IMG/VR virus record: IMGVR_UViG_3300045988_086533
Coordinates: 1 to 64,000 of that record
Strand: one strand, 5' to 3'
Origin: a virus
DNA: 64,000 bases
Shown here: positions 4,207 through 63,874 of the stretch, one piece after another
Position numbering within the stretch: the first letter of the stretch is position 1
Layout: each line of letters starts with the position of its first letter
The notes under the pieces: model-generated
Database searches by the model: none
What the model was told of the DNA's origin: nothing
What the model saw: only the letters and a program-made list of their open reading frames with translations
Made by a program: the position numbers and the translations under genes

Positions 4207-4219
4207 ATATACTATATAT
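4185..4219 (+). promoter_or_regulatory. phage promoter motif, copy b (the -35 box lies in the terminator loop)
   Basis: gttagtaaa-N14-tatactatatat followed by gtac. Confidence 0.6.
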
Positions 4220-10281: not shown

Positions 10282-10614
10282 ATGAGTACAAGAAGTAAAA
10301 GTGATGAACAAGAACAATATGTAGCTAATTACTTGGAAGGAGAAGTTACACCTAATAGTGGTGCAGGACATACTAAAAAAGGAGATGTATTAGTTGATAC
10401 ATTTTACTTAATAGAATGTAAAACTAAAATGCAACCTGCAACACAATTTACCATAAAGAAAGAATGGATAACTAAACTACAACAACAATCATTGGCAATG
10501 CATAGACCATATAGTGCGTTAGTATTTGACTTTGGGAAGGTGGGGGAAGAATATGCAATAATACCATTACAGGATCTAAAAGACTATATAGAAAAATTAA
10601 GGGAGGAATTATAA
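10282..10614 (+). CDS. small PD-(D/E)XK nuclease (Hjc-like resolvase fold)
   Basis: Pattern E..Q..V..YL.G...NSGAG..KGDV(7)LIECKT fits D...ExK. Confidence 0.45.
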   Translation: MSTRSKSDEQEQYVANYLEGEVTPNSGAGHTKKGDVLVDTFYLIECKTKMQPATQFTIKKEWITKLQQQSLAMHRPYSALVFDFGKVGEEYAIIPLQDLKDYIEKLREEL

Positions 10615-11627
10615 TGGAAGCATTAGCAACTAAATATAGACCGAGAACATTTAATGACGTGGTGTGTCAAGATAATATAAAAAAGGTATTAACTAACCAA
10701 TTGGAAACTGGAGAGATAAAACAAGCTTATTTGTTCGCCGGAAGCCCTGGAACTGGTAAAACTACTAGTGCTAGGATATTTGCAAATGACGTAAATGAAG
10801 GTAAAGGAAAACCAATAGAAATAGACGGTGCCAGTAATAATGGTGTTGATAATATACGTAGTATAATTGATGACTGTAAAATGAAAAGTTTAGACAGTAA
10901 ATACAAAGTATACATAATAGATGAAGTTCATATGTTGAGTCTCGGTGCATTCAATGCCCTATTAAAAGTGTTAGAAGAACCACCAAAGGGAGTTATATTC
11001 ATATTATGTACAACAGATCCACATAAGATACCACCAACTATATTAAGTAGATTACAACGTTTTGACTTTAAACGTATACCACAATTCGATATAGTACAAA
11101 GATTAGAGTATATCTTAAAAAAGGAAGGTATATTAACATATAACGTAGAGGCAATAGAGTATATAGCAAAATTAGCTGACGGGGGAATGAGAGATGCCAT
11201 AATGAAACTAGATACAGTACTAGGTTATACAAATGAGATAACACTACAAGCAGTATTAGATTGCTTAGGAATTACTAATTATGAATATCTATTAGGAATA
11301 GTACAAGGGATTATAAATAAACAACCAGATGAACCGATACAAATAATCGACAAGATATATAGAGACGGAAAAGACTTAAAACTATTTGTAAAGGACTTAA
11401 ATAAGTTTGTACTAGATTTATGTAAGCTGAATATAACAAGAAATAAAGAGTTAACAATGATACCAACTGATATAATGCGACAATGTATCCATATAGCAAC
11501 TAATACTTCAAAGTATGACTTAGTAGATATATTGGATGGGATCAATAACTTATTAGACAAGATAAAATATGAGCAGAATCCTAAAAATTTAGTTGAAAGC
11601 GAGTTGATAATCTTATGTCTAAAATAA
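10614..11627 (+). CDS. dnaX: clamp loader ATPase, DnaX (gamma)-like
   Basis: YRPRTF, Walker A GSPGTGKTT, IIDEVHMLS, NALLKVLEEPP and sensor TILSRLQRF. Confidence 0.9.
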   Translation: MEALATKYRPRTFNDVVCQDNIKKVLTNQLETGEIKQAYLFAGSPGTGKTTSARIFANDVNEGKGKPIEIDGASNNGVDNIRSIIDDCKMKSLDSKYKVYIIDEVHMLSLGAFNALLKVLEEPPKGVIFILCTTDPHKIPPTILSRLQRFDFKRIPQFDIVQRLEYILKKEGILTYNVEAIEYIAKLADGGMRDAIMKLDTVLGYTNEITLQAVLDCLGITNYEYLLGIVQGIINKQPDEPIQIIDKIYRDGKDLKLFVKDLNKFVLDLCKLNITRNKELTMIPTDIMRQCIHIATNTSKYDLVDILDGINNLLDKIKYEQNPKNLVESELIILCLK

Positions 11628-12418
11628 TAGGTCAGGCTAAGTTACAAGCCAAGCTGAATGGTCAACCTATACCTCACTTTTTTATATTGTGGGGTGATAG
11701 AGGGGCAGGGAAGTATCTAATGAGTAAACAAATAGCTAATAATAACCATTATAATTATGTATTAGTGGATAATAATATCGAAGGTATTAGACAATTAATA
11801 GAAGATTGTACTGCTATATCTACACCGACATTATTTTATATAAAGGGAGATGAGTTATCTATACCAGCACAGAATGCATTGCTTAAATTAGCTGAGGAGC
11901 CACCTAGTAAAGGCTACATAATGATTGGAGTAAGAAATATAGATAATTTATTAGCAACAATACGTAGTAGAGCAAAACTATTAATAATGGATAATTACAG
12001 TGTACACGAGCTAAATGATGTATTTGATTTATACGATCTGGGTGAAGTGCCAAGAGATATACTATGTAAAGTAGCCACAACACCGGGGCAAATGTTGGAA
12101 TATGTTGATAAGGATTTCATCAATATGTATCAATATGCATTAAAGGTATACAACAATATATTAAGAGTTAGCACAGGGAACGCCTTTAAGATATGTAATC
12201 CAATAGGGTTTAAAGAAAATGATGGCTATCCAGTGGAACTATTTTTAGAACTATTTAAACAGGTAGTAATAGATGAGCAGAAACACAGTAGCTATGTGGA
12301 TCATAAGATGATAGAGTACACTAGTTTAGCACTAAGAGATTTAAGGATAAGAGGAGCAAATAAACCATTAATATTCGATATATTTGTACTAAATATTAGA
12401 ACTTTAAGGGGGAAATAA
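11615..12418 (+). CDS. holB: clamp loader delta-prime-like subunit
   Basis: Degenerate P-loop GDRGAGK, NALLKLAEEPP and TIRSRAK. Confidence 0.75.
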   Translation: MSKIIGQAKLQAKLNGQPIPHFFILWGDRGAGKYLMSKQIANNNHYNYVLVDNNIEGIRQLIEDCTAISTPTLFYIKGDELSIPAQNALLKLAEEPPSKGYIMIGVRNIDNLLATIRSRAKLLIMDNYSVHELNDVFDLYDLGEVPRDILCKVATTPGQMLEYVDKDFINMYQYALKVYNNILRVSTGNAFKICNPIGFKENDGYPVELFLELFKQVVIDEQKHSSYVDHKMIEYTSLALRDLRIRGANKPLIFDIFVLNIRTLRGK

Positions 12419-12419
12419 T

Positions 12420-12743
12420 ATGTTACCATTAAAAAATGATGCTAGGGAAATTAAGAAGTTTGCCAAACAATTTGCAGAGGCTTATAAAGATTGTTTTGCT
12501 TGGTATAGTGAAGAAAAATATGTTCGTGGGTTTGCTGCAAGACACTTTGAAACTGTATGTGCTATCAATGAAGATGAGAATGGGATCAAGATAAGCAAGA
12601 AAAATAAAAAATTATTTATAGATGAATTTAGTAAAATTACATTAAATAATATACTATATATGAAGGAACAACACAACATAAAGGAAAAACAGGACATTAA
12701 GAAACATGGGATAAAACGTAAAAAACAAAAGGGAGGAAAATAA
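12420..12743 (+). CDS. hypothetical protein with a Lys-rich C-terminus
   Basis: ORF with RBS aaggggg. Confidence 0.5.
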   Translation: MLPLKNDAREIKKFAKQFAEAYKDCFAWYSEEKYVRGFAARHFETVCAINEDENGIKISKKNKKLFIDEFSKITLNNILYMKEQHNIKEKQDIKKHGIKRKKQKGGK

Positions 12744-12744
12744 T

Positions 12745-12903
12745 ATGTTTAATTTTATGGTTTTAATAGTTGCAATGAGTATAGTAATTGATTGGATAAC
12801 ACAAACAATAGGCGATAGGGATATTGATGGTATAAGTGCTATAGTAATTTCATTAGCTATATGGTATTTAATCCAAATAGTGGGAGGAATAAAATTATGT
12901 TAG
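12745..12903 (+). CDS. small membrane protein (52 aa)
   Basis: Not in the ORF track. RBS gggagg, two hydrophobic segments, fills an otherwise unexplained gap. Confidence 0.4.
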   Translation: MFNFMVLIVAMSIVIDWITQTIGDRDIDGISAIVISLAIWYLIQIVGGIKLC

Positions 12904-13796
12904 GTTTATTAGAACTACAGGGGCAAATAAGGGAAGGTAATTTACTTCCCTTTTATATTTTTACTGGGGAAGAAATTGAGCTGCAAAATATATACTTAAA
13001 ACAAATGGGTAATGTAGTGCGTATAGATAGAGTGGCTGACATATATAACAAAATAACAAGTAAACTAATAGGCGGTAAATTTGCAGTATATGTAGTTAGA
13101 GATGATATGGATTTTATTAAGAGTGAAAAAACGTGGGGCAGTATAAGTAATAAAATTAGAAATGCAGTATTAGTAGTACAAGTTACAACGCCGAGTAAAT
13201 GTAAAAAATTTATAAAGGAATTAAATAATTGTGTAGTAGAATTCAATCATATGACAACAAAACAATTGTTAAGTGTGGTTAATATGAAAGGTAGTGTAAG
13301 TAATAAACAATATTTTATAGAAGCCTGCAATAATGATTTAAATACAATTAACAATTATATGGATATATTCAAGAGATCAGGAATAAAAGAGCTGAATAAA
13401 AAGATAGTAGATGAGTATATACCAACAAAAGAAGAAGTAACTGTATTTCAACTAGCAGATGCCATAATGAAAAAAGATGAACAATTGACATTTAGATTAT
13501 TAGACCAGTTATTGGAGGATAAAAATAATGCAATGGGTATTATATATGCCATATATTCTCAACTCCATAAATGTGTATTAGTAGAAGGATATAGAGGGGA
13601 AGAAGATATCTCTAAAATAACTGGTATTAATAGTTGGATATGTAATAATATACTACGTTATAACCGTATAAAGCCCGCTAAATTACTTACTGCACTACGA
13701 TTAGTACAAAAGTATGATCAGGGAGTAAAGACAGGCAAATATGAAGGTGTAGTAGCTTGTTATAGTTTAATAATAGAAATTTTAAGTTATTGTTAG
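12897..13796 (+). CDS. holA: clamp loader delta-like subunit
   Basis: Start moved to ATG 12897, after gtgggagga. The N-terminus LLPFYIFTGEEIELQ resembles HolA. Position within the clamp-loader operon supports the call. Confidence 0.6.
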   Translation: MLGLLELQGQIREGNLLPFYIFTGEEIELQNIYLKQMGNVVRIDRVADIYNKITSKLIGGKFAVYVVRDDMDFIKSEKTWGSISNKIRNAVLVVQVTTPSKCKKFIKELNNCVVEFNHMTTKQLLSVVNMKGSVSNKQYFIEACNNDLNTINNYMDIFKRSGIKELNKKIVDEYIPTKEEVTVFQLADAIMKKDEQLTFRLLDQLLEDKNNAMGIIYAIYSQLHKCVLVEGYRGEEDISKITGINSWICNNILRYNRIKPAKLLTALRLVQKYDQGVKTGKYEGVVACYSLIIEILSYC

Positions 13797-29186: not shown

Positions 29187-29592
29187 ACAGTCTATCCAAG
29201 CCGGGGTAATTAAGAAAGTACAGAATGCCATAAATAATTATGGTTATCAAGTACCAATATATAGGGATATATACCAAGTGGATGCAATGGGTTGTAAAGT
29301 ACTAAAGGAAGAAATGTCTTATATACAAGACTTACAATGTGTAATAGATAATAGTTCCAGTAGCAGAAGTAAGAGCATAACTAATAATAACCAAGGTATT
29401 ATAAAAGGTTATTCATATGCTACCTTATATGCTACATATGAGGAAGACTTCCCACTACAGGAAGATGACTTCATAGTTTATGAAGATACTTATTACAAGG
29501 TGATAGAAATAAGCGATGTAGTACATTATAATCTACTATACCAAGTTTCATTGGAAAGGGTTGATTTAGATGGCGAATACAATAACATTTGA
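29176..29592 (+). CDS. head-tail joining / head closure protein
   Basis: Position only. Confidence 0.3.
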   Translation: MSNRQSIQAGVIKKVQNAINNYGYQVPIYRDIYQVDAMGCKVLKEEMSYIQDLQCVIDNSSSSRSKSITNNNQGIIKGYSYATLYATYEEDFPLQEDDFIVYEDTYYKVIEISDVVHYNLLYQVSLERVDLDGEYNNI

Positions 29593-29920
29593 CACTAAAG
29601 AATTTAATGATAAAATAAAAACTTTCAATAAAACTATGCAGGCTGAGTTAAAGGTGGTAGGTAGTACTATTAGTAAGAATATGCAAACATATGCTAAGGC
29701 TAACCATCCTTGGACTAATAGAACTAAATCAGCACAGAATAAGTTAAAAGGTAAATATAAAGTAACTGAGAATGATTTAGATATTAGCATTGCACATGGC
29801 GTTGACTATGGATACTACCTAGAAACAAGAGCTGACTTTGATGGTAAATACAAAATATTAGAAGAGGCCAGGGATAGTGAGGTTGATAACTTTAAAGGTA
29901 TGATACAAAACTTGTTTTAA
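29570..29920 (+). CDS. tail completion / neck protein (HK97 gp10-like)
   Basis: Position and size. Confidence 0.3.
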   Translation: MANTITFDTKEFNDKIKTFNKTMQAELKVVGSTISKNMQTYAKANHPWTNRTKSAQNKLKGKYKVTENDLDISIAHGVDYGYYLETRADFDGKYKILEEARDSEVDNFKGMIQNLF

Positions 29921-29934
29921 AGGAGGGTTAAAAA

Positions 29935-30291
29935 TTGAGTGCGAGACTTAATATATATAATGTAATAAAAGGTGTAATTAATACAGTGCCAGTCCATGAC
30001 CGTCCTGCACGTATCACAGAGGATACTGCAGTAATAATGAGAACAAGTGCTAATCAAAGTTTCGATAACACTCTTTGTGGATGGGATAACTGGATTATAT
30101 ATATCTATACTCCACACAGTCCTCTACAACTAGATACGTTGAGAAACAAGGTTAGAAAAGCGTTATATTTAGCGGGCATTGAAATTACACATGATATGAG
30201 TGATGATATGTACGATCAAGATTTAAGATGTTATGTGTGTTCTTTGACTTGTAGAACACCAGTAATTTTTAATTATGATGATAATGAATAG
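29935..30291 (+). CDS. tail terminator-like protein (TTG start)
   Basis: RBS aaggaggg 7 nt upstream. Position before the major tail gene. Confidence 0.3.
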   Translation: MSARLNIYNVIKGVINTVPVHDRPARITEDTAVIMRTSANQSFDNTLCGWDNWIIYIYTPHSPLQLDTLRNKVRKALYLAGIEITHDMSDDMYDQDLRCYVCSLTCRTPVIFNYDDNE

Positions 30292-30305
30292 GAGGTAAGT
30301 GTAAT

Positions 30306-30875
30306 ATGGCTATATTATATAATATTAAAAAGGCAGTAATAACTGAACTTGACCCAACTACAGGGGCAGCTAAAGAAAGTGGAGTTGTGGCTCATATAAA
30401 AACTGCACAAAAGGCTGAATTAGAACCAGTGCTTAGCGAAGGTGAAGAAGATATACTAAGAAATGATGTTAGTATATTAGCAGTTGTTAGAACAGAAGAT
30501 TTAATTTATGGATATGATATAAAACTAACAGATAACCAATTTGATGATACAATGGCAGGACTTGTAGCTGGGTATAAAGTGGAAAATGGAGATACAACTG
30601 GTACTAAAAAGTTATCAACTCCAATGATGAGTGAAGGGAACGTGGCAAAACCATTTAAACTAGACTTATATGTTGCTAACTACAGTGGAGATTCAATTGT
30701 CAACTATGCAAAAGTTACATTGAATAAATGTACTGGTAAATTCCCTACAATGACAGTAGGAGATGGATTCTTTGCTCCAGAGTTTGAAATAAAAGCTAGA
30801 GAAAATACTAAAGCAAAACTACCAATAAAAGAAATAACATTTGTGAGTGAGTTACCAGAAGACCCTGCACAATAA
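30306..30875 (+). CDS. major tail (tube) protein
   Basis: 189 aa, immediately before the chaperone pair and the tape measure gene. Confidence 0.55.
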   Translation: MAILYNIKKAVITELDPTTGAAKESGVVAHIKTAQKAELEPVLSEGEEDILRNDVSILAVVRTEDLIYGYDIKLTDNQFDDTMAGLVAGYKVENGDTTGTKKLSTPMMSEGNVAKPFKLDLYVANYSGDSIVNYAKVTLNKCTGKFPTMTVGDGFFAPEFEIKARENTKAKLPIKEITFVSELPEDPAQ

Positions 30876-39400: not shown

Positions 39401-40956
39401 TTAGACCTTGGGACTTAGCAAGAGCTGATAAAGAAGCCAAAGTTAAAAATCAATCAGCTACTAAGCCAACACCTCCAAAAGACATAGTAGACGATGATGA
39501 CGGGGCAACTTATGAAGTTACATTTAAAGGACTTAATAGTGCAGCACCTAAAGACTTTGTAGAAGGCGGAAAACTTATTACTAATATTACGGTAAATGGA
39601 GTTACAGACAAAACGCCATACCCTAAGACTGTAAGTCATATAATGCTAGCTTTCGGAGTTCCCGCACTAGGGGATAATGTGGATAATGTTGTGGAAGATT
39701 ATCAATCACTTATAAAAGCACTATTGAAAAAGTATCCAAAGAAACCTATATTTGTATGTCAAGAACCTCGCTTAAGAAGTTCTCAATCTGGTAATTATCA
39801 ACAAATGAATGAGGCTATAGACTCACTTAATACTATGATGTTAGACTACTGTAACAAGACAAAATATGTAATATTTCTAAAGAAACCAAAGGATATGTGT
39901 GATACAACAGATAATCACTATTGGTTAAGTAGTTTAACTACTGACGGATATAGAATGAAAGACAAAGCATCTACTCAGACTTATTACAAAGAATATAAGA
40001 AGAAGATATTATACTTTGGAGAAGGAGCAGAATGGGAGAGCGACAGTGCAACTAGTAATAAGATGTTAGATAGTCAACGTGTATATACTTATAATAAACC
40101 ATTGAAAAAACTACAATTTAGGGTGCCAGCAACTTCATCCACTAACTACAATGATAGTTATTATGCACGTATTGTTTTCACTACTGCAAAAGGATTCAAG
40201 TTAATTCAACCTGACAGTGTATATTTAGAAGGTGTAGACTGTAAAAACGGAGTACTATTACCGAAGGAAAATACTACTTATATTGTATCAGTTTATTATA
40301 ACCCAGATACTACTATTAGTGATAAAGCGTATTTAGGAAGTGTTGGTGCTAAGAAAAAAGGTAGTAATTATGCACAACCATTATTTAAATATTCTAAGGA
40401 TTTAGTTAAAATTGCCAACAGTTACTACAATAATAATAGTAAGTTCAGTTATAATGCCACTACTCCTTGTGACTTTAAAAACCCAGCCGAAAATATCAGT
40501 AAATGGAAGGTGAATAATAAGTACCAAATTGATGACAGTTGTTTCCTTAACTACGTATTAACTGGATGGACTTATGAAAAATCTCCATATGGCAACGAAA
40601 AGAAAACTAATAATAATAGAAATAGTGATGTTAGCTGGGCAATTCCAAGCACTAGAAATGAGGCTAATATAGGGAAATATTTTGTACAAAAAAACTGGGT
40701 GGTAGACGTAGCAGACTTGGAAACATTTAAGAATTTAGCTATTGGTGATATTATATTTATGGATGCAGACAGTAAAAATAATGGTGAATTTATGGCTATA
40801 TCCCATACTGCAATAGTAATAGAAAAAGACAAAGCCGGAGATTATGTGGCACTTGAGTGCACAAATGGTTTAACCAATGGTGTATTTAGAAAAGTAAAAG
40901 TAAAGGACCTTACAAGTAAAAATATATTATTTGTAGGTAGATTTATGATAGGATAG
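36403..40956 (+). CDS. tail-associated lysin (Tal) with lytic transglycosylase and NlpC/P60 domains
   Basis: SLT motifs IYAESSANP...GLMQ...YNFG. NlpC/P60 motifs YVCSSLSSCAY, PGDLIM and HHVVVYCG. A second P60-like domain lies at the C-terminus (DDSCFLNYV, GDIIFMD, ISHTAIVI). Confidence 0.8.
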   Translation: MNKNLYIFDNDKKLLKLINTTNTNSIKVYDDTYTSELLTGAETYTASFKVSYQDQPIFLEGNYIGFYWQDNFKLMQIKKTTSIEHIDDVTITVYAEFIGIELYNSYVDKFVADGTATKLLETILMDTNYKVGYVSPSLDEEAFRVEATEVTSVYSVIQNATSILYECEWQFRTVPVDIKRGKFDFYVDCFANGERGTKRYKRFESDRNSYGMKRTGDITNFCSGIIPVGKNGLTISDVKWEKEQGDPTNKPLGQNYIFDEKAHEMLNNGGKYVLMKYKSDADDIYTLIHEGYAKLKELNKTKFSYEIPVYMTERDYEEIDVGDTNYVVSRKFNPPIQLEARITEFEISFTDRTKNSITLGNYKQIRSKMKSLNKDDIVNDVVDIIKKHGKLTASDLLAIRNYLNQLGVDKKLIDKLIKQYTDKVVPDPIKPGDDTTDISDDTEDYRAINIKKIDNGLWIGDSRIHDCIKYKCGEIKGKTPTTQPQPDKKEDSSKTAKQYKAAVDYYAGFGLGKWSDKYSDVRNMRSKSNHWKIYAPVEYYSKKFGLDPQLVYAMIYAESSANPYDATKYSGGGYGLMQCERAAYFNKKQKIEYLDGKVEYFTPSYSNMKPKSCGTKIINGVKVDKAICNQIMFGCNELRKSLKRFKWNIFAALVGYNFGLYGCDLLICRYVAMKNGLSWVNRYGYTVQSSKVQKLYFAELEKLTAAWAGGRKWYVENKKAGTANNIECYLRWYKVVDGQLPYCIDEKGKKRGYGAIKPGTSNKSAEATAVSTESSMDRAASVKNAPTWKIEGNTTNKKGVAENVRKKIVNKAREICDLHQKYKKATYYGGACIYDDSKRYRVSGTIHGIKNPYCYVCSSLSSCAYLYAGLRSVTAKYGGANCAYGSLVRYATKYSGYTLKKLTSTTINELLPGDLIMLSNATVPSNVTVAWASKPGGDSKYAKAGTHHVVVYCGKVNGKRMIAHASGGHKWPDAIRYEDMSITYSKRGSMTHWYTHGIILRPWDLARADKEAKVKNQSATKPTPPKDIVDDDDGATYEVTFKGLNSAAPKDFVEGGKLITNITVNGVTDKTPYPKTVSHIMLAFGVPALGDNVDNVVEDYQSLIKALLKKYPKKPIFVCQEPRLRSSQSGNYQQMNEAIDSLNTMMLDYCNKTKYVIFLKKPKDMCDTTDNHYWLSSLTTDGYRMKDKASTQTYYKEYKKKILYFGEGAEWESDSATSNKMLDSQRVYTYNKPLKKLQFRVPATSSTNYNDSYYARIVFTTAKGFKLIQPDSVYLEGVDCKNGVLLPKENTTYIVSVYYNPDTTISDKAYLGSVGAKKKGSNYAQPLFKYSKDLVKIANSYYNNNSKFSYNATTPCDFKNPAENISKWKVNNKYQIDDSCFLNYVLTGWTYEKSPYGNEKKTNNNRNSDVSWAIPSTRNEANIGKYFVQKNWVVDVADLETFKNLAIGDIIFMDADSKNNGEFMAISHTAIVIEKDKAGDYVALECTNGLTNGVFRKVKVKDLTSKNILFVGRFMIG

Positions 40957-40967
40957 GAGGGATTAAT

Positions 40968-43900
40968 ATGATTGGTGATGGACAAGAGCATGTTGATAGA
41001 CCCGTGTATGATGATGACGGTGAGATGATTGTGTGGCCAACACTAGATGATGACATGGAAGAATTTGCAGAGGAACCGGAAGTAGCTACTATAGCTGCTT
41101 CCGGTGATACTACAGAAGATGATACGTATTATGAAGTACCTGACACTGTAGAAGATGACCAAGATAGAATTGATGTGCAAGTTGAAGGTATAGAAGACGA
41201 AGAATGTGAGGATCCCAAAATAGGTGATATTCAACAAGCCGGAGAAGATTATAATGAGGCTATGGATAGAATTGTCGGTGTATTAATGCAAGCATTAAGT
41301 ACAGAAGAAATGACAGAGGAGATGAGTGCAGAACTACAAGACTCAACTAACAACATGGAAACTGCTAAACAAACTATAACTGATTTATGTGGTGACCCTG
41401 AAACAAAAGTATTACAAACTGACCCTGATACTAAAATTCCACAAAATCTACAAGAACTGTTAGAGACACTTACAAAAGATGGAAAGGCGCCATGGCTATA
41501 TATAGATGATGAAGGTAATTTATTATTAGATGGAGAAAGCGTACCCAAACTAAAAGTAGTAGAGTTAGAAGCACAAAAGATAAAAGCAGATTATGGTGAG
41601 TTTAAAGACCTTACCACTAAAAACTTTACGGCAGTTAATGCTAAAATTGATAATTTAGACGTAGGTAATTTAGATGCTATTAATGCAACTATAACAAATT
41701 TAAAAGCTACAGTAGCACAGATACAAACGCTAATAGGTGGAAACTTAACTATGGATAATATCCACTCTTTAGTATTAACAAGTGATAAAGTGACTATAGC
41801 TAATGCATTAATAAAAGATGCTATGATTGATACTGTTAGTGCCAATAAAATTAATACAGGTATTCTTAATACAAATAATGTGCAAATACAATCAAAAGAT
41901 GGAAGTATGTTATTGCAAGGCAATCTTCAACAATTTAAAGATGCCAAAGGCAATGTACGTATTCAAATAGGAAAAGATGCTAAAGGTAATTTTACATTTG
42001 TATTATATGATGAAACTGGTAAAGGTCAACTTATTAACCAGAACGGTATTCAATCAAGTGATGCTATAAAAGATGGATTAATAGTTGATAGTAAAGTAGC
42101 TGATAATGCTAATATAAGTGGAGGTAAATTAGATATTAGTAGTGTTATTAGTAGTATAAATAATAATACAAATACTATAAAAGCTAGTCATATTAAATTT
42201 GATGATACAGAACAAACACTGGACGTATCATTTAACCAACTTAAAAAGACAGTTGAAACTATAAAGGATGTTACTATTGGTGGAGATTTAAGTAGTGTTA
42301 TTGAACAAGTAAGTACAAATACAACTAACATAAGTATAGCACAAGGACAAATATCTACTCTTATTAGTAATACAACTATTACAAAACAAGATGGAACTGT
42401 AGTGCAGTTAAAAGATGCTTATAACAGTACAAAAGACACTGTAGATAAACATACAACTACAATAGGAAAATTAGAAACTAAGTATGAATCAGCATTAAAA
42501 ACAACTACAACAGAATACTACGTGTCTACTAGTAGTACTACTCAAACGGGAGGAAGTTGGGTTGAAACTACTCCTAAATGGGAAAAAGGAAAATATATAT
42601 GGCAAAGAATGAAATATACTTATGGCAATGGAAATATAACTTATTCTACTCCCGTATGTATTCAAGGCGCTAAAGGTGATAAAGGTGACCAAGGGGAAAA
42701 AGGTGATCAAGGTTTACAAGGTATACAGGGCGAACAAGGTGAACAAGGTATACCAGGAACACCTGGTAAAGACGGTACATCTGGTAAAGATGGTAAAACA
42801 ACATATTTCCATATAAAATACAGTGACAATGCAGATGGTAATCCAATGACTGAAACACCAAGTACTTATATAGGTACATATGTTGATTATAATGTGAATG
42901 ATAGTGCGGATTATAAGGCTTATAAATGGAGTAGATTTCAAGGTGTACAAGGTGAACAAGGTATACCAGGAACTGATGGTACCAACGGAAAAACTTATTA
43001 CCTACACATTAAATACAGTAATGATGGGGGTAAAACTTTTACTGCAAATAAAGGCGAAACTCCTGGAGCATATATAGGCGTTTACACTGATACAAACGAT
43101 AAAGATAGTGAGTCCGTTGCTGCATACACATGGAGTAAAATAAAAGGTGAACAAGGTGCAAAAGGTGATAAGGGTGATCCAGGTCTACAAGGTATACCAG
43201 GAACTGATGGTAAAGATGGTAAGACTTACTTTACATGGATTAGATATGCTGACACTATAGAGGGTAGCGGCATTAGTAATGACCCAACAGGTAAAACTTA
43301 TATAGGTTTTGCTTATAATAAAACAACTGCTACTGAAAGTAATACTCCTTCCGATTACACATGGAGTCTAATTAAAGGTGATAAAGGTGATACAGGTGTA
43401 AAAGGTGAAAATGGTAAGGATGGTAAAACTTATTACACTTGGATTAAATATAGTGATAATGCAGACGGAACAGGATTATATGATGCGCCAAAAGATACAA
43501 CAAAATATATAGGTATAGCAATAAATAAAACAACACCTACTGAAAGTAGTAATAAAACTGACTACACATGGAGTAAGTTTAGAGGAGATAATGGGGAACA
43601 AGGTGATAAAGGACAATCTCTAGTCAGTTCAGTTCCACAGTGGTATCTATCCACTAGTAAAACCGCCCAAGCCGGTGGTAGTTGGGTTGAAGATATGCCA
43701 CCTGTAACACAAGGTAAATACTTATGGTTAAGATATAAATTAACATGGGAAAACCCTTCACAAACTACTTATACAACACCAACATTAGAACAAGTGGCAG
43801 AACAAGTAAAAGATGTAACTAGTAAACAGTCAAAATTAGAACAATCATTGGATGGGTTTAAAATGACAGTGAGCGATACTTATGCAACAAAAGTAGGGTT

Positions 43901-57669: not shown

Positions 57670-58053
57670 ATGAAGGACTTAGGGGTTTTATTAAGTGAGT
57701 TAGCTGAAATAAAAGAACTCAATAAAAAGAATAAAGAGATTGAAAACAACTTGATTAAAGACACTAAAACTATGTTAGATGAGAAGGGTATTACTAAAGG
57801 AGAATACGATGGCATAAAAGTTTCTTATACTACTAATACTAAAAGTGAGTTAGATGATAACATCCTTATAGAGATATTATTAAATATGGCACAAGAAAAA
57901 CCTGAAATAATGGACTGTCTAATTAAAACATATACTGTAGATGAAGATAAGTTGGAAGAATTAATGTATGGGGGTCTAATAAGTACTGACGACATAGCTC
58001 CAGCTTATAGAGAGAAACAATATAAAACTTTAAGAGTAAAGAGGGTGAAATAA
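57670..58053 (+). CDS. hypothetical protein
   Basis: ORF with RBS aaggagg. Confidence 0.5.
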   Translation: MKDLGVLLSELAEIKELNKKNKEIENNLIKDTKTMLDEKGITKGEYDGIKVSYTTNTKSELDDNILIEILLNMAQEKPEIMDCLIKTYTVDEDKLEELMYGGLISTDDIAPAYREKQYKTLRVKRVK

Positions 58054-58412
58054 TGGCTCTACCTGGATTTAATGTTAATAAAGTACCAACTGTACAAACT
58101 AAATTAATAGAAGAAATTATAGACTATCTTAATAATAGAGCAGGAACTAAATATAAACATGATGCTAAAAATACTGTCAAATATATTTCCGCCCGACTAA
58201 AAGAAGGTTATACATTAGAAGATTTTAAATATGTGATTGATGTAAAAATAGCTGAGTGGGGTGGAACTAATATGGAAATGTATATTAGACCACAAACTCT
58301 ATTTAGTTCTAAAATGGAAAACTATGTTAATCAACCTATGCCACGTAGTAATCGTGCTAGTTATCAAGTTGAAAATGATTATAAACACGACACAACTAAT
58401 AGAAGGATTTAA
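58053..58412 (+). CDS. phage conserved C-terminal domain protein (Phg_2220_C-like, replication-associated)
   Basis: IIDYLNNRAGTKYKH...YISARLKEGYTLEDFKYVIDVKIAEW...YIRPQTLFS fits the family pattern from memory. Confidence 0.55.
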   Translation: MALPGFNVNKVPTVQTKLIEEIIDYLNNRAGTKYKHDAKNTVKYISARLKEGYTLEDFKYVIDVKIAEWGGTNMEMYIRPQTLFSSKMENYVNQPMPRSNRASYQVENDYKHDTTNRRI

Positions 58413-58427
58413 TCCTTCTATTTTTTT
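58401..58427 (+). terminator. intrinsic terminator
   Basis: Stem agaagga / tccttct, loop tttaa, T7. Confidence 0.6.
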
Positions 58428-58435
58428 AGGTCCAA

Positions 58436-58470
58436 GTTAGTAAAACGCTCAAATTTTCTATACTATATAA
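58436..58470 (+). promoter_or_regulatory. phage promoter motif, copy j
   Basis: gttagtaaa-N14-tatactatataa. Confidence 0.55.
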
Positions 58471-58508
58471 AAAAACCTTTTTTAAAATAAAAATTTTTTA
58501 AATTTGTA

Positions 58509-58543
58509 GTTAGTAAAATCGCAAATAATTCTATACTATATAT
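58509..58543 (+). promoter_or_regulatory. phage promoter motif, copy k (tandem with j)
   Basis: gttagtaaa-N14-tatactatatat. Confidence 0.55.
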
Positions 58544-58650
58544 AGATATTAAATATTAGTTATCCTAAAAATAAATAAAGAATCCCGCAATGGGAGATTA
58601 TTATGCAACAAAGTTGCATAATTCTTTTCAACTAAAAAAGGAGGAATATT

Positions 58651-58917
58651 ATGATAAGTACTAATAATTATTTGGTGGTGACTCCAAACAACTATTTTTT
58701 ATGCAATGATGTTAGACACATTATTAATAGTATAAAACACAGTTGTTATAGATTAAATGGTCATCAACTACAAAACTTTAATAAACTTATTACTAGACAT
58801 ATAGAGAGAGCTGATTGGAATAAACCAATAAAGAAACAAAAGTATATCATTAAAGATGATATATATGTAGTAAAGTTAGATAAAGATGAAATAAAAATGT
58901 TTTTTAGGGGGTGTTAA
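58651..58917 (+). CDS. hypothetical protein
   Basis: ORF with RBS aaggagg. Confidence 0.5.
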   Translation: MISTNNYLVVTPNNYFLCNDVRHIINSIKHSCYRLNGHQLQNFNKLITRHIERADWNKPIKKQKYIIKDDIYVVKLDKDEIKMFFRGC

Positions 58918-58919
58918 TT

Positions 58920-59726
58920 ATGGACGAAAAATACAAAATATATAATGGTGATTGCTTAGAGGTTATGGATAAACTGATTGAGCAGGGAATAAAAGTTGAT
59001 GCAGTAATATGTGATCTTCCATACGGAATAACTGGATATAAGTGGGATAGTGTAATTCCATTTAATAAAATGTGGGATAAAGTGAATAAATTAATTAAAG
59101 CTGATTGTGCAATTGTATTATTTGGACGTGAACCTTTTACAAGTGCATTAAGAATGAGCAATATAAGCAATTATAAATATGAATGGTACTGGAATAAAAT
59201 TAGTAGTGGTAATTTTGTAGGGGCAAAATTTGCTCCTTTTAAAATAATTGAAAATATTTGTATTTTTAGTAATGGGAAATGTCCCTATAATCCACAAATG
59301 ATAGAACGAACTGAAAAAGAAATAAATGATTATATTGCAAAGAGTCGTAATAATAATATTACAGTTAAAAATGATTATTTATATGATGGATTTAAAAGTG
59401 GTGTCATTGTGCCTTCATCCAACCCTAAATATAAATATCCCGTTAATTTATTAAATTTTAACTGGAAAGCTAAAGAATGTAATAGTAGATATAGAGTGCA
59501 CCCAACCCAAAAACCAGTAGATCTACTTGAGTATTTAGTTAAAACTTATACCAATGAAGGTGATTTAATATTAGACTTTACAATGGGGAGTGGCAGCACA
59601 GGAGTAGCTTGTTTAAATACTAACCGTAGATTTATTGGAATAGAAAAGGAAGAAAAGTATTTTATTATAACCAAAGAGCGACTAGAAGATGCTAAATTGA
59701 ATAATAGACAAAAGAAATTATTTTAG
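58920..59726 (+). CDS. DNA methyltransferase (beta-class), paralogue 2
   Basis: VICDLPYG (motif IV variant), FTMGSGSTGVAC (motif I). Ends in NNRQKKLF. Confidence 0.85.
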   Translation: MDEKYKIYNGDCLEVMDKLIEQGIKVDAVICDLPYGITGYKWDSVIPFNKMWDKVNKLIKADCAIVLFGREPFTSALRMSNISNYKYEWYWNKISSGNFVGAKFAPFKIIENICIFSNGKCPYNPQMIERTEKEINDYIAKSRNNNITVKNDYLYDGFKSGVIVPSSNPKYKYPVNLLNFNWKAKECNSRYRVHPTQKPVDLLEYLVKTYTNEGDLILDFTMGSGSTGVACLNTNRRFIGIEKEEKYFIITKERLEDAKLNNRQKKLF

Positions 59727-59739
59727 TGGAGGAATAATT

Positions 59740-59979
59740 ATGAATGATATAGAACTAACTAAGCAGAGACAAAAAGAAATAGCTAAATATGGTAAACGAC
59801 AAGGTTTTCCAATTTGGGTATGTTTTAAGATGAATTATTTAGGTGATATAACAGAGATTAAGACATTCTTTACTGCAAGTGCTAAAGATGAGTATATTAG
59901 TCAAAAGGTAGATGATTATAACTTTGTAGCATATCTGACATATTCCAATGATGTTAAAAAAGTTTCATATTCTATTTAA
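59740..59979 (+). CDS. hypothetical protein
   Basis: ORF with RBS gtggagg. Confidence 0.5.
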   Translation: MNDIELTKQRQKEIAKYGKRQGFPIWVCFKMNYLGDITEIKTFFTASAKDEYISQKVDDYNFVAYLTYSNDVKKVSYSI

Positions 59980-60001
59980 ATGCGAGGGAGATGAGTTTTT
60001 T

Positions 60002-60694
60002 ATGAATAATGAAAACTATGAATTATATCAAGGTGATTGCTTGGTCGTTATGGATAAACTGATTGAGGATGGGATAAAAGTAGATGCAGTAATATCAGAT
60101 CCACCTTATGGGATGGAGTTTAAAAGTAATCGTAGAAAGGAAAAATATGAAAAAATTAGTAATGATGATGATTTATCATTTTTAGATGAATATTTTCAAA
60201 AATGTAATAGGCTGTTAAAAGATGATACTCATATATATTGCTTTTGTAGTTGGCATAATATAGATAAATTTAAGATTGCCTTTGAAAAATACTTTACATT
60301 AAAAAATATAATAGTATGGGAAAAGAATAATGCATCTATGGGTGATTTGTATGGATCATATGCTCCTAAGCACGAATTTATATTATTTGGGCATAAGGGG
60401 AGAAGATTAAGAAATGGTAAAAGATTACCGGATGTTATACAAGCCAAAAGAACTGGAAATAAATTACATCCAACACAAAAACCCGTTGATTTATTAGAGA
60501 TTTTTATAAAACAATCAACAAATGAAAATGATGTAATTTTAGATTCATTTATGGGTAGTGGTAGCACTGGGGTTGCTTGTTTAAAAACCAAAAGGAGATT
60601 TATAGGCATTGAAAAAGAGGAAAAATATTTTAATATAACTAAAGAACGACTAGCATATGCTAGCTTAAATAATAGACAAAAAAAATTATTTTAG
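60002..60694 (+). CDS. DNA methyltransferase (beta-class), paralogue 3
   Basis: ISDPPYG and FMGSGSTGVAC. Ends in NNRQKKLF. Start at MNNENYELY, after gagggaga. Confidence 0.85.
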   Translation: MNNENYELYQGDCLVVMDKLIEDGIKVDAVISDPPYGMEFKSNRRKEKYEKISNDDDLSFLDEYFQKCNRLLKDDTHIYCFCSWHNIDKFKIAFEKYFTLKNIIVWEKNNASMGDLYGSYAPKHEFILFGHKGRRLRNGKRLPDVIQAKRTGNKLHPTQKPVDLLEIFIKQSTNENDVILDSFMGSGSTGVACLKTKRRFIGIEKEEKYFNITKERLAYASLNNRQKKLF

Positions 60695-60695
60695 A

Positions 60696-60730
60696 GTTAG
60701 TAAACTGTATAGTTTTTCTATACTATATAT
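60696..60730 (+). promoter_or_regulatory. phage promoter motif, copy l
   Basis: gttagtaaa-N14-tatactatatat followed by gtaac. Confidence 0.6.
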
Positions 60731-60899
60731 GTAACTTATTATTAAATTATTTTATTATTTTAATTTTTATTATTTTCTTATATGACCCAGTAGTGTATAA
60801 TAAGAGAGTAGGTGATTAACTTCATATAACCAACTAAGAAATTATTAACAATCCCCATATTTATATTCCAACGGCTTGGTAACCCGTTGGAATTTTTTT
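60731..60899 (+). ncRNA. candidate small non-coding RNA (about 165 nt), bounded by a promoter and a terminator
   Basis: No ORF longer than 8 codons with an RBS. Bounded by promoter l and the terminator at 60866-60899. A UCCCC motif (60852-60856) lies just 5' of the terminator. Confidence 0.4.
60866..60899 (+). terminator. intrinsic terminator
   Basis: 9-bp stem ttccaacgg / ccgttggaa, 9-nt loop, T7. Confidence 0.7.
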
Positions 60900-60909
60900 A
60901 TTTATTTTA

Positions 60910-60944
60910 GTTAGTAAAATTTGGTATTTTTATATACTATATTT
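60910..60944 (+). promoter_or_regulatory. phage promoter motif, copy m
   Basis: gttagtaaa-N14-tatactatattt followed by gtaac. Confidence 0.55.
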
Positions 60945-60982
60945 GTAACACAAGATAAATAAAATTTGGAGGAGTGATTTAT

Positions 60983-61678
60983 ATGAGATTAAATTTAATA
61001 GGTAATGAAGCTGATAGACAACTTGTATTAGCTAAGGAACAAGAAGGGAAAATAAATTTAGTTAACCTACTTAAGAAATATGGTGATGTAGTAGATTATA
61101 TGACTGAACCAATGGTAGCTAATTTTTATGGAGTGCCAAATAAAACTATTAAAACGTTAGCAACTAGAAATGAAAGTGAGTTAAAAGGATATGGATATAA
61201 AGTATATAAAAAAAGTGAAATCCTAAAGTTTCAAGATGAAACTTTAGAGAATGTACCAAATAGAGGATTAAGATTATATCCAACTAAAGCGGTAATAGTG
61301 GTAGGTATGATGTTAACTGATAGTCCAGTTGCCGAACAATTAAGAAGGGATATAATGGACATATTATTTGGCAAGGAAGTTGCGATACCAACTGAGAGCA
61401 CTATTAGAAATGTAGTTAGTACTGAACTTGACAAAAGAGTACCACAATTGGTTGGGTGTAAAGATGCTCAAGTAAAAGCCATTGTTAAAGCCATTAAAGG
61501 TAATTTATTTATTAAAACTAAAAAACAAGATTATGCAAATTATGAGACTGTAGTAGCATGGTTATTAGGGAAATATGGTGTGTATAAATTAGAGGATATA
61601 CCATTTAGTGATGACTTATATGTTGAGATAAAAGATTTTGTTAAGAAATTACATCCAAGACAAAAAAGATTATTTTAG
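60983..61678 (+). CDS. ORF6N/antirepressor-like DNA-binding protein
   Basis: MVANFYGVPNKTIKTLATRNESEL...LRLYPTKAVIVVGMML resembles the ORF6N domain. Ends in HPRQKRLF. Confidence 0.45.
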   Translation: MRLNLIGNEADRQLVLAKEQEGKINLVNLLKKYGDVVDYMTEPMVANFYGVPNKTIKTLATRNESELKGYGYKVYKKSEILKFQDETLENVPNRGLRLYPTKAVIVVGMMLTDSPVAEQLRRDIMDILFGKEVAIPTESTIRNVVSTELDKRVPQLVGCKDAQVKAIVKAIKGNLFIKTKKQDYANYETVVAWLLGKYGVYKLEDIPFSDDLYVEIKDFVKKLHPRQKRLF

Positions 61679-61680
61679 TA

Positions 61681-61715
61681 GTTAGTAAAACACAACTTTT
61701 TTCTATACTATATAT
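61681..61715 (+). promoter_or_regulatory. phage promoter motif, copy n
   Basis: gttagtaaa-N14-tatactatatat followed by gtaag. Confidence 0.6.
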
Positions 61716-61809
61716 GTAAGGGAAATAACCCCTCCCTTACATACACAACCCCTTAATATTTTATTTTTTACCCCGGTACCTATTCCCCCTTTGGTATCGG
61801 GGGTTTTTT
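61716..61809 (+). ncRNA. candidate small RNA (about 90 nt) with three C-rich motifs
   Basis: 5' hairpin gtaaggga / tcccttac with loop aataacccc. Linker caaccccttaa. Terminator ccccggtacc / ggtatcgggg with loop tattcccccttt, then T6. No ORF. Confidence 0.5.
61771..61809 (+). terminator. intrinsic terminator
   Basis: 10-bp stem (one G-U pair), 12-nt C-rich loop, T6. Confidence 0.7.
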
Positions 61810-61813
61810 CTTT

Positions 61814-61848
61814 GTTAGTAAAATTAGAATTTTTAATATACTATAAGT
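61814..61848 (+). promoter_or_regulatory. phage promoter motif, copy o (variant -10)
   Basis: gttagtaaa-N14-tatactataagt. Confidence 0.5.
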
Positions 61849-61865
61849 AAAGGGAGGTTTTGCAT

Positions 61866-62579
61866 ATGTATGATGTAAAAGATTTTAAATTTATTAAAAA
61901 TAGATGTTGGTTTAGGACTAACTGTCCTATGTATAATACAAAGGACTGCAATTGTAGTTGTAGTGTATATTTTCAGTATTACTATTTAGTTAATCTAGCA
62001 AATATACCACCAAATAAGCAGCAACCGGAGGACTTGAAGTTGAGCGCTGGAGATGACCTTAAAAAGTATGAATATCTTAATGGTGTGAAGAATAATATTA
62101 ATGAATTTGTACATGATGGATGTAATCTATATTTATACAGTCCTTACTTTGGTAATGGTAAAACTACTTGGTCCATAAAGTTGATGAGCAAATATTTTAG
62201 TAATATTTGGAATGGCAATGGCACTCGTTGTAGAGGTCTATTCATCAATGTAGATGAATTTCTAATGGCTAAAAGAAATGCCATAAAACGACCTGACTTA
62301 AGACTAGAAGAAATGGAAAAATTAATCCCAAGCGTAGACCTTATAGTATGGGATGACATAGGAGTTACAAAATTAAAAGAATATGACCATCAAATATTAT
62401 TCAGTTTAATCAATCCTCGTATAGTAAATAACAAAGCTAATATATTTACTAGTAATGTTATTGATGAACAATTGGATGATAATATTGGGGGTAGATTGGC
62501 AAGCAGAATATTAGATACAAGTACAATAGTTGAATTTACTAACAAGCCACAAAGGAAACCAAAAGGGGTGAGAATATAA
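61866..62579 (+). CDS. DnaC/IstB-like helicase loader ATPase with a Cys-rich N-terminus
   Basis: Walker A SPYFGNGKTT and Walker B LIVWDDIG. N-terminal CWFRTNCPMYNTKDCNCSC. Lies upstream of dnaB. Confidence 0.65.
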   Translation: MYDVKDFKFIKNRCWFRTNCPMYNTKDCNCSCSVYFQYYYLVNLANIPPNKQQPEDLKLSAGDDLKKYEYLNGVKNNINEFVHDGCNLYLYSPYFGNGKTTWSIKLMSKYFSNIWNGNGTRCRGLFINVDEFLMAKRNAIKRPDLRLEEMEKLIPSVDLIVWDDIGVTKLKEYDHQILFSLINPRIVNNKANIFTSNVIDEQLDDNIGGRLASRILDTSTIVEFTNKPQRKPKGVRI

Positions 62580-63874
62580 TGGTACAATTGCAAGCCATAA
62601 ATGATATATTAAATAATAATAACTTGGATCAATACACAGGCCAAGGAATAACAAAAGAGTACTTCAAGGACTATCAAGAAGAATTTGAGTTTATAAGTAC
62701 CCATTTTAGAACTTATGGAAAAGTACCTGACTGGGAAACATTCATGGGAAAATTTCCGGACTTTGATGTCGTGGAAGTATTAGAGCCATTAAAATATATT
62801 ATATATAACCTTAAGGAAAATTATTTATTTGATCAGGGGGTTTCATTATTTCAATCTAGCGGTGATATATTAGAACAGAACGCCTTTGATGGCTTACAAC
62901 ACATAGTAACAAGAGCACAACGTCTACTAGATCAAACGGTACAAAGTGGTGGTGTAAATATTAACAACATGGTAGATGAGAAAATAAAGGACTTAGAGAA
63001 TAAACGTGCTAAAGGTGGTATGCTTGGAATTGGAAGTGGCTTACCTGAATTAGATAAGATACTTAATGGATGGCTGCCTGGCGAAGAATTAGTTACTATA
63101 GTTGGTAGAGTTAATCAAGGTAAATCTTGGTTGCTACAAAAGTTTTTAACCGAAGCCAACAAACAATATAAAAAAGTACTCCATTACAGTGGTGAAATGG
63201 GGGTATTACAAGTGGCATATAGAAATGATACATTAGGTATGAACTACACTAACTCCCAATTAATGAGGGGTACAATAGGTGATGGTGACTATAAACAATA
63301 TATTAACGACCTAGAAACTAATAAAGAATTACCACCATATATAGTAGTAACTCCGGTAGACTTTGGAGGTAAAATGTTAACTGTATCTAAATTGAGAGCA
63401 CTTATAAAAGAGTATAAACCGGATATAGTTGGTATAGACCAGATATCATTAATGGAAGATGAACGACGTGGAAAGGGAGATCAAACAAGAACACAGTACA
63501 CACATATAGCTCAAGATTTATTTAATATTAGTATAGAATTTAGCATTCCAATTATAGTGGATGCCCAAGCCAACCGTAATAAGGCGGATATAGATAAGCC
63601 GGAAAACCCCGAACTTGCTGATATAGGAGAGAGTGATGGCATTGCACAAAATAGTAGTAGAGTAATTTCTTTAGTACAAACTAAAGCGGGGTTGAGCCTT
63701 AAAATAACTAAAAATAGATATGGCGAAAATAATAAGCAGCTACTATATGTGTGGGATATAGATAATGGTATATTTACTTTTGTAACTGAACAACTGGAAG
63801 ATGGAGCTGACATTGAGCCACAACTACCTTTGAAAAATAAAAATAAAATAAATGATGTAACTGATGTATTTTAA
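62579..63874 (+). CDS. dnaB: replicative DNA helicase (DnaB family)
   Basis: Walker A GRVNQGKS and Walker B VGIDQISLM. IIVDAQANR and GESDGIAQNS match DnaB motifs H3 and H4. Confidence 0.85.
   Translation: MVQLQAINDILNNNNLDQYTGQGITKEYFKDYQEEFEFISTHFRTYGKVPDWETFMGKFPDFDVVEVLEPLKYIIYNLKENYLFDQGVSLFQSSGDILEQNAFDGLQHIVTRAQRLLDQTVQSGGVNINNMVDEKIKDLENKRAKGGMLGIGSGLPELDKILNGWLPGEELVTIVGRVNQGKSWLLQKFLTEANKQYKKVLHYSGEMGVLQVAYRNDTLGMNYTNSQLMRGTIGDGDYKQYINDLETNKELPPYIVVTPVDFGGKMLTVSKLRALIKEYKPDIVGIDQISLMEDERRGKGDQTRTQYTHIAQDLFNISIEFSIPIIVDAQANRNKADIDKPENPELADIGESDGIAQNSSRVISLVQTKAGLSLKITKNRYGENNKQLLYVWDIDNGIFTFVTEQLEDGADIEPQLPLKNKNKINDVTDVF

Follow-up and report, generated by a model that had tools for sequence, protein, structure and literature searches.

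Why should three DNA methyltransferases (MTases) and one unrelated protein, all encoded on a single stretch of viral DNA, end in the same short sequence, Q-[KR]-[KR]-L-F? The DNA in question comprises positions 1 to 64,000 of the IMG/VR record IMGVR_UViG_3300045988_086533; this 64-kb stretch, referred to below as the window, has a GC content of 32% and 77 putative genes (20,352 amino acids), all on the + strand. We conclude that the shared tail is almost certainly a selected docking motif. Its receptor is probably, as judged by sequence comparison, the sliding clamp encoded by the same phage, and the short linear docking peptide [KR]-Q-[KRN]-[KR]-L-F-COOH seems likely to be a basic variant, specific to this lineage, of the motif Q-x-x-L-F by which bacterial proteins bind the beta clamp. 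The physical contact, the identity of the bound clamp and the functional consequence are what we infer from the observations described here.

The four tail-bearing proteins are the following:

4247/4253-5065, + strand: N6/N4 DNA methyltransferase MTase1 (PF01555, E 1e-31), the first gene of an operon running into dnaN
5048-5062, + strand: MTase1 tail QRKLF (end ...ETSKKQRKLF, from the translation), proposed clamp-docking motif
58911/58920-59726, + strand: N6/N4 DNA methyltransferase MTase2 (PF01555, E 2e-26), tail QKKLF at 59709-59723 (end ...LNNRQKKLF)
60002-60694, + strand: N6/N4 DNA methyltransferase MTase3 (PF01555, E 3e-43), tail QKKLF at 60677-60691 (end ...LNNRQKKLF)
60983-61678, + strand: putative KilA-N/ORF6N-type DNA-binding protein of 231 amino acids, assigned from its homologues, tail QKRLF at 61661-61675 (end ...LHPRQKRLF)

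The motif Q[KR][KR]LF occurs exactly four times in the proteins of the window, each time as the last five residues, while amino acid composition predicts 0.03 occurrences anywhere and 1e-4 at C-termini; the four endings (ETSKKQRKLF, LNNRQKKLF twice, LHPRQKRLF) are as given in an earlier, sequence-only reading of this DNA. All three MTases score above the PF01555 cut-off of 26.7 bits (94–149 bits, E 1e-26 to 3e-43), and their catalytic motif is DPPYG in MTase1 and MTase3 and DLPYG in MTase2. They are paralogues with 36–48% identity. The alignment of MTase1 with MTase2 ends ahead of the tails, that of MTase1 being preceded by an acidic low-complexity linker, and MTase2 and MTase3 are approximately 80% identical across their last 45 residues. 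Orthologues of MTase2 at two related loci (L023 and L034) have kept the tail.

The fourth carrier, the ORF6N-like protein, is indeed unrelated to the MTases, with which it has only the 10-residue tail in common. It has no match in Pfam or PHROGs. Its residues 1–130 are common to phage proteins with an ANT/KilAC (PF03374) C-terminal domain, tblastn matches phage 'antirepressor' genes, and its distant relatives share only the N-terminal domain, their C-terminal domain being ANT/KilAC. In an AlphaFold2 (AF2) model (predicted local distance difference test score, pLDDT, 73), an N-terminal domain is followed by a disordered linker (131–158), a helical C-terminal domain and a disordered tail (225–231) with pLDDT below 50. 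Comparison of this model with BFVD gave weak matches to KilA-N/repressor proteins (E 1e-6 to 1e-2, low template modelling (TM) scores), and a fold search of the PDB gave nothing significant. The product of 60983-61678 is best described as a putative DNA-binding protein bearing the same tag. Some of its ANT/KilAC antirepressor-type relatives (P0337, P0338, P0343, P0344 and P0359, on contigs of 1–2 kb) end in ...SSNQEQLNLF, ...EQIKLF or ...EQIKIF, which are near-canonical clamp motifs.

The statement that no other protein of the window ends in this way holds for the basic version of the tail, but not for LF endings in general: a 116-residue product of an open reading frame (ORF) in the structural module (29570-29920) ends in ...GMIQNLF, without basic residues. 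Given that 0.2 LF endings are expected per 77 genes, this one could be due to chance. The NKKLF near the end of the SNF2 helicase, previously proposed as a related tail, had to be discarded, as it aligns with ...GNLFDILLK in Streptococcus phage Dp-1 and ...SNVFDILLRK in phage MS1 and is thus part of a conserved, internal-like C-terminal segment.

The proposed receptor and its loader are encoded in the same window:

5082-6140, + strand: phage DnaN-type sliding clamp, proposed receptor (Pfam DNA_pol3_beta N and C domains, phrog_947, AF2, Foldseek)
10614-11627, + strand: DnaX-like clamp-loader gene (Pfam; the 10614-13796 set matches DNA_pol3_delta2, DNAX lid, gamma3 and DNA_pol3_delta_C)
11615-12418, + strand: delta'-like clamp-loader gene (Pfam)
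12861-13796, + strand: delta-like clamp-loader gene (Pfam)

That this phage encodes its own clamp and a three-subunit clamp loader was borne out, the latter by matches to the DnaX, delta' and delta Pfam families. The product of 5082-6140 reaches 30.1 bits for PF00712 (cut-off 24.4) and remains under the cut-off for PF02768, whereas a profile of its family matches solved beta clamps in the PDB at E 1e-26. Its AF2 monomer (pLDDT 93.7) has B. subtilis DnaN (4tr6) as its best structural match in Foldseek (TM 0.87), and on the strength of this model we are confident that it is a genuine beta-type clamp with the three-domain beta-clamp fold. Its C-terminus is acidic (...LATADEE), as are those of its relatives' clamps. 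Positions 58000–63000 had no megablast match among GenBank phages and hence no close DNA relative there; relatives were found through protein rather than DNA searches. The clamp shares 34% identity with Dp-1 DnaN, and both Dp-1 and MS1 have a replication module (SSB, PolA, DnaN, Cas4-like exonuclease, RecU, dUTPase, UvsX-like recombinase and clamp loader) syntenic with that of the window.

Is the common ending a peptide under selection, or merely the trace of shared ancestry or of a DNA-level boundary between gene cassettes? Common descent of the MTases, or a cassette or recombination boundary, would be compatible with the near identity of MTase2 and MTase3 over their last 45 residues, with the nearly identical DNA that encodes the tails within the window, and with the promoter motif found immediately 3' of two of the four tail genes. 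However, Dp-1 gp07, a DpdA-type 7-deazaguanine DNA transglycosylase (phrog_887) unrelated to the MTases and encoded just upstream of dnaN, ends in ...NRQRRLF, and its MS1 orthologue in ...KHKQNRLF. The codons for the tail differ in Dp-1 and MS1 as well: Dp-1 uses cgt-caa-cgt-cga-cta-ttt where the window has aga-caa-aaa-aaa-tta-ttt, and the near identity of the DNA within the window can be put down to AT-biased codon usage for one peptide. Three kinds of sequence are found 3' of the tail stop codons, namely a ribosome-binding site with the next gene, a phage promoter, or a terminator. Among ORF6N-like proteins the tail is kept despite insertions and deletions just upstream of it (KLQAVDNRQKRLF, KLQPRQKRLF, KLHPRQKRLF). 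Because codons, downstream DNA, upstream insertions and deletions, and the folds that bear the tail all vary, a DNA boundary and simple shared ancestry are excluded, save for the MTase2/MTase3 pair; the differing codons and downstream context by themselves rule out a cassette boundary, and we see next to no chance that descent or recombination accounts for the shared end. The view that the tail is a selected peptide, already taken in the sequence-only reading, is thereby substantiated, since the tail survives all these changes and recurs on unrelated families.

The positions occupied by tail-bearing genes in related phages point in the same direction. In 18 close IMG/VR relatives, the slot immediately 5' of dnaN is either vacant or taken up by an MTase (SKKQKKLF) or by a single DpdA-like gene or a pair of them (NR[YF]QKRLF). 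Within this variable 'modification slot' (approximately 9000–10000 in loci L004 to L021; 4247-5065 in the window), every occupant has the tail, including tandem DpdA-like paralogues. Similarly, the slot between the SNF2 helicase gene and the DnaC-like gene is filled by MTases, by a phrog_5172 protein (NDRQKKLF) or by ORF6N-like proteins.

An alignment of the clamp family yielded 62 further loci with clamps 26–43% identical to that of the window; overall, about 100 loci from clamp-encoding phages were compared. Dp-1-type DpdA proteins and Gram-negative phage clamps are missed by Pfam and recognised by PHROGs. In nearly every one of the 62 further loci, between one and three ORFs have an LF end, and LF is by far the commonest C-terminal dipeptide among 1482 dereplicated ORFs (78 observed, 5.2 expected). 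The LF tails prefer K/R at position -6, Q at -5 (44/78), K/R/N at -4 and K/R at -3. Their carriers fall into about 19 sequence clusters and at least 10 unrelated families, mostly DNA-modification enzymes:

DpdA-like proteins, phrog_887 (70 unique sequences)
DUF6884 (PF21818) proteins
PF01555 N6/N4 MTases
the ORF6N-like family
small Nlig-Ia ligase-like proteins
a family of 171–183 amino acids encoded directly upstream of dnaN
a class-I S-adenosylmethionine (SAM) methyltransferase adjoining DpdA
a putative glycosyltransferase-like pair
phrog_5172, a primase, a GIY-YIG endonuclease and others

Within single families, an LF end was found in 111 of 120 homologues of Dp-1 DpdA (eight others have QKTLF or QKPLF followed by 2–4 residues) and in 70 of 78 full-length ORF6N-like homologues (three others end in LFSS). 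Among 150 mutually diverse homologues of MTase3 there are 15 such ends (0.4 expected), including ...EQLSLF and ...KQLSLF. As the Gln is lost in the most distant clades, what all the tails have in common is basic residues and then LF. The DUF6884 proteins (146–154 amino acids; L054 5058-5522 and relatives), whose genes lie some 4 kb upstream of the DpdA gene in metagenomic phages of the Dp-1/MS1 type, end in ...SQQRRLF or ...KKQRKLF, and by its tag this family is a probable DNA-acting enzyme.

If the clamp is the receptor, the LF core might be expected on the replicative polymerase too, an assumed clamp client, and it is indeed found at the N-terminus of the family-A polymerase (PolA):

1053-1064, + strand: N-terminus MSLF of the replicative family-A polymerase, LF core (comparison of PolA N-termini in 64 relatives)

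In these 64 relatives PolA begins with MAQKGLFG (Dp-1 group, gp71), MTQKGLFG, MSLFKD (window group), MGRIGDMF, MALFEV or MPTISLFDM, and in Gram-negative phages with MRFDAIGMFWED; that PolA shares the LF core with the tail-bearing proteins as a fellow client of the clamp is a supposition made from these sequences. The polymerase gene of the window is itself split into an N-terminal part (1053-2501) and a C-terminal part (3254-4168), with a 170-residue ORF (2608-3120), the ending of which resembles an endonuclease-type insert, between them. In relatives PolA is intact (785 amino acids, L004) or in at least three pieces with two inserted ORFs (L006), which suggests mobile intron or homing-endonuclease insertions.

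Linkage of tail-bearing genes to clamp genes extends to GenBank phages of Xanthomonas, Rhizobium, Pseudomonas, Providencia, Escherichia, Vibrio, Stenotrophomonas and Microcystis, in which dpdA precedes a phrog_947 clamp gene with at most one or two small genes in between. The DpdA proteins of such Gram-negative and cyanobacterial phages end in RIQELF, REQRLF, RVQELF, RLQDLFDE, MIQGLF, NEQMELF or TDQPELF. Dinoroseobacter phage R5C has no clamp gene adjacent to its DpdA gene, the product of which ends in QVSLF, and a clamp homologue lies 3.4 kb away. Cellulophaga phage phiSM (L114) encodes a processivity factor and a short DpdA without a tail; only two of its 59 annotated coding sequences end in LF, and both flank dpdA, one encoding a ParB-like protein (...TSVNLF) and the other the 217-residue hyp54 (...NQVNLF) (40255-40719 and 41439-42092). 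This suggests that in ParB-associated DpdA systems the tag is on the partner protein.

The co-occurrence of tail and phage clamp, proposed earlier as a check across related phages, was found in the sample: 11 of 11 sampled DpdA genes from clamp-encoding phages have the LF motif, which is absent from the DpdA of a clamp-less actinophage. In the latter, Arthrobacter phage Mufasa8, annotation together with hidden Markov model (HMM) and BLAST searches of the non-structural half revealed no clamp, and neither DpdA nor ParB has an LF end. A different situation is seen in the temperate pneumophage phiARI0004 (L115/L117), in which a homologous PF01555 MTase (record positions 30044-30739) ends in ...NAQLSLFDEV, a sequence that includes the canonical host motif QLSLF. 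By the same kind of annotation and searches of its non-structural half, this phage lacks both a polymerase and a clamp; it does encode an integrase, RecT and SSB. The extent of the alignment with the phiARI0004 MTase is repeated in at least eight pneumophage records. The sequence-only reading had counted a tail in any phage lacking a clamp as evidence against its proposal, which is not valid, as the ending found here is that of the host's own clamp ligands; QLSLF on the MTase of a clamp-less pneumophage argues for clamp binding.

The composition of the tail also appears to track the clamp that is likely to be used. Firmicute-type phage clamps have acidic C-termini (ATADEE, STLDNE, ...DDE) and go together with basic tails, whereas the proteobacterial phrog_947 clamps end in ...GMRG or ...GMRQ and go together with acidic or neutral tails (QELF, QDLFDE, QMELF). 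The C-terminus of E. coli beta lines the cleft that receives the peptide. The pattern thus looks like charge complementarity between clamp C-terminus and tail. All four tails of the window have residues Q1, L4 and F5 of the consensus Q-phi-x-[LM]-[FL], position 2 being K or R rather than hydrophobic.

We consider the clamp the likely partner because of the terminal Q-x-x-L-F layout, the LF core of PolA, the linkage to dnaN, the clamp-less controls and the charge contrast. In the mechanism that we favour, the tail, held on a flexible C-terminus, would place its Leu-Phe in the hydrophobic domain II/III cleft of the clamp encoded by 5082-6140, while the preceding Lys/Arg residues would pair with the conserved acidic clamp C-terminus (...ATADEE), a part that in known beta clamps borders the cleft. 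Clamps remaining on the DNA in the wake of the phage replisome would in this way attract the three MTases and, in relatives, DpdA 7-deazaguanine transglycosylases and other modifiers, so that nascent phage DNA could be modified at once, ahead of cutting by host restriction. The ORF6N-like protein may rely on its tag for an action on replicating DNA, perhaps as a regulator coupled to replication; such a role, by analogy with T4 gp33/gp55 or Mu MuC, is speculation.

Several points weigh against binding of the clamp by the tail, or against the importance we would attach to it. The canonical motif mostly has a hydrophobic residue at position 2, where these tails have Lys or Arg, although the Gln and position 2 have been reported to tolerate substitution. 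The Gln is missing from, or displaced in, the tails of the most distant clades (KRLSLF, RIQELF), which leaves only the LF core as universal. Within the Firmicute-type clade, the charges of clamp C-terminus and tail show no rank correlation (rho 0.05), so the complementarity is a contrast between two clades only. All loci were retrieved via dnaN or DpdA, so that co-occurrence with any other conserved replisome gene, such as those for PolA or the clamp loader, is equally strong; the sequences are also phylogenetically related, so that the counts given above overstate the number of independent events. The absence of a clamp from the control phages is based only on the annotation and on the HMM and BLAST searches of their non-structural halves. 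Finally, in T4 the contact between alpha-glucosyltransferase and the gp45 clamp is not the main determinant of modification levels, and functional importance is not to be assumed here either.

Some of these points bear on which receptor is used. The tail might dock on another component of the phage replisome (the family-A polymerase, clamp loader, helicase or SSB), in which case modification would still be coupled to replication, only without the clamp; genes for PolA, the clamp loader and the helicase are common to all sampled phages, so that co-occurrence cannot separate these partners, and position 2 is atypical of a clamp ligand. We nevertheless regard this as unlikely: the Q-x-x-L-F layout and terminal position are those of known beta-clamp ligands, tail genes abut dnaN specifically, the N-terminal LF core of PolA fits a shared receptor better than PolA as the receptor, and a temperate phage with neither clamp nor polymerase has the host motif QLSLF on its homologous MTase. 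That same MTase, along with the other homologues with canonical QLSLF, could be taken to mean that the tail targets the host beta clamp, to borrow it as a platform or to outcompete host clients, and phage proteins that use the host clamp through such motifs, for instance MuC, are known. In clamp-encoding phages, though, the basic positions 2 and 3 depart from the host consensus, the departure varies by clamp lineage in line with the clamp C-terminus, and the tail genes are co-operonic with the phage dnaN, for which reasons we give the host clamp little chance of being the target.

A function unconnected with replication is less probable still. MuA-type ClpX tags consist of basic and then hydrophobic C-terminal residues. 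The tail, which is disordered and terminal and has a similar basic-then-hydrophobic end, could therefore be a stability or protease signal (resembling ClpX 'C-motif 2') that times removal of the enzymes. Such a signal would leave unexplained the linkage to dnaN, the N-terminal LF motif of PolA, the canonical QLSLF and acidic QELF variants of other clades, and the tolerance of 2–4 residues after LF, and we consider it very improbable. Binding to the phage clamp is the reading that we retain.

Some further features of the window concern its expression and replication genes. A promoter-like motif precedes the MTase1-dnaN operon and also flanks the genes at 58.4–61.9 kb:

4186-4215, + strand: promoter-like motif TTAGTAAA-N14-TATACTAT

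In the form TTAGTAAA-N14-TAYACTAT, it has 11 copies in the window (0.05 expected), all on the + strand, at 4186, 8378, 12628, 17919, 25820, 58437, 58510, 60697, 60911, 61682 and 61815; in two of the four tail genes a copy lies immediately 3' of the stop codon. The repeated motif is probably a phage early or middle promoter. One copy is found inside a small ORF (12420-12743; 107 amino acids, phrog_22039) between the delta' and delta genes, the product of which has an internal ...SKKNKKLFIDEF; this protein could be an accessory clamp-loader subunit, or SKKNKKLFIDEF could be a chance match. The DnaB-like helicase (62579-63874) has the conserved end ...DVTDVF (APSDVF in other clades) and SSB (304-987) the C-terminus ...RRRRVVDDEF. 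The dipeptide VF ranks third at the C-termini in these loci, after LF and GK, with 30 ORFs, 11 of which fall in the length bin of about 450 residues that corresponds to the DnaB-like helicase. The acidic-aromatic tips of helicase and SSB are probably separate docking motifs.

A broader proposal may be put forward tentatively, as we hold it to be somewhat less probable than its opposite. The phrog_947 clamps of Firmicute, proteobacterial, cyanobacterial and Bacteroidetes phages might be private DNA-modification hubs, on which DpdA, ParB-like DpdB partners, DUF6884 proteins, N6/N4 and class-I MTases and possibly glycosyltransferases dock via a terminal LF. Clamp and tag would have diverged together from their host counterparts (a basic tag where the clamp tail is acidic, an acidic one where it is basic), and the resulting orthogonal code would hold phage enzymes on phage DNA while excluding host clients from it.

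Phage 7-deazaguanine modification has been proposed to be post-replicative, and DNA methylation is likewise generally post-replicative, which raises the question of how these enzymes match a fast replisome and beat host restriction. Enzymes riding on the clamps left behind the fork would, if our reading is true, provide a concrete answer on the timing of modification, and phages with a family-A polymerase would have a reason beyond polymerase processivity for encoding DnaN and a clamp loader. The terminal LF tag would serve as a simple sequence marker for probable DNA-acting or modification enzymes, such as DUF6884, phrog_5172 and the family of 171–183 amino acids upstream of dnaN. Should the clamp-tag pairs prove orthogonal to the host pair, they would offer engineering parts and possible targets for anti-phage or phage-therapy design.

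How much of this has been described before? Full-text searches turned up nothing relevant on a clamp-binding motif together with a phage methyltransferase, or on DpdA together with a sliding clamp. Methyltransferases and other DNA-modification enzymes are absent from the beta-clamp partners in a 2024 review, no clamp is mentioned in central DpdA papers or in a pneumophage methylation paper, and a 2016 host-phage interactome paper has no text on a clamp or gp7. The claim that no clamp-tethered phage methyltransferase has been described therefore stands insofar as none was found for beta-type clamps, but the idea itself has a precedent in the T4 alpha-glucosyltransferase and gp45.

The beta-clamp-binding motif (consensus QL[SD]LF, or Q-phi-x-[LM]-[FL]) is known from Pol II, Pol IV, UmuC, Hda, MutS/MutL, LigA and MuC of phage Mu. 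The phage tails resemble it in the Gln at position 1, the Leu-Phe at positions 4–5, the disordered terminus, the presence on many unrelated DNA-acting proteins and the DnaN fold of the proposed receptor, and they share the terminal position with the motifs of Pol II and Pol IV. They differ in having Lys/Arg at positions 2–3 instead of hydrophobic or acidic residues, in that the presumed receptor is a divergent phage clamp with an acidic C-terminus, and in that the clients are DNA-modification enzymes. In T4, the alpha-glucosyltransferase binds the gp45 clamp, and modification concomitant with replication has been proposed; a DNA-modification enzyme is thus paired with the phage's own sliding clamp in both cases, by binding in T4 and by proposal here. 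However, gp45 is a trimeric, PCNA-like clamp, the glucosyltransferase acts on hydroxymethylcytosine, and no terminal motif common to several enzymes is on record there; in a 2026 study of T4, the alpha/beta glucosylation ratio was found to be set by how strongly the enzymes are expressed and not by clamp binding. DNMT1, a maintenance methyltransferase, is recruited to new DNA by PCNA via a clamp-binding peptide, but there the clamp belongs to the PCNA family, the peptide is a PCNA-interacting-protein (PIP) box and the purpose is epigenetic inheritance rather than escape from restriction. Closest to the window are the DpdA systems of Dp-1/MS1 and the Queuovirinae, with their syntenic replication module (Dp-1/MS1), DpdA genes that adjoin the clamp gene, and the ends QRRLF, QNRLF and QELF; the window has methyltransferases in place of the DpdA/preQ0 pathway. 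Clamp-binding motifs and the tethering of DNA modifiers to clamps (DNMT1-PCNA, T4 alpha-glucosyltransferase-gp45) are therefore known, and what appears to be new is the pairing of beta-type clamps with phage methyltransferases or DpdA.

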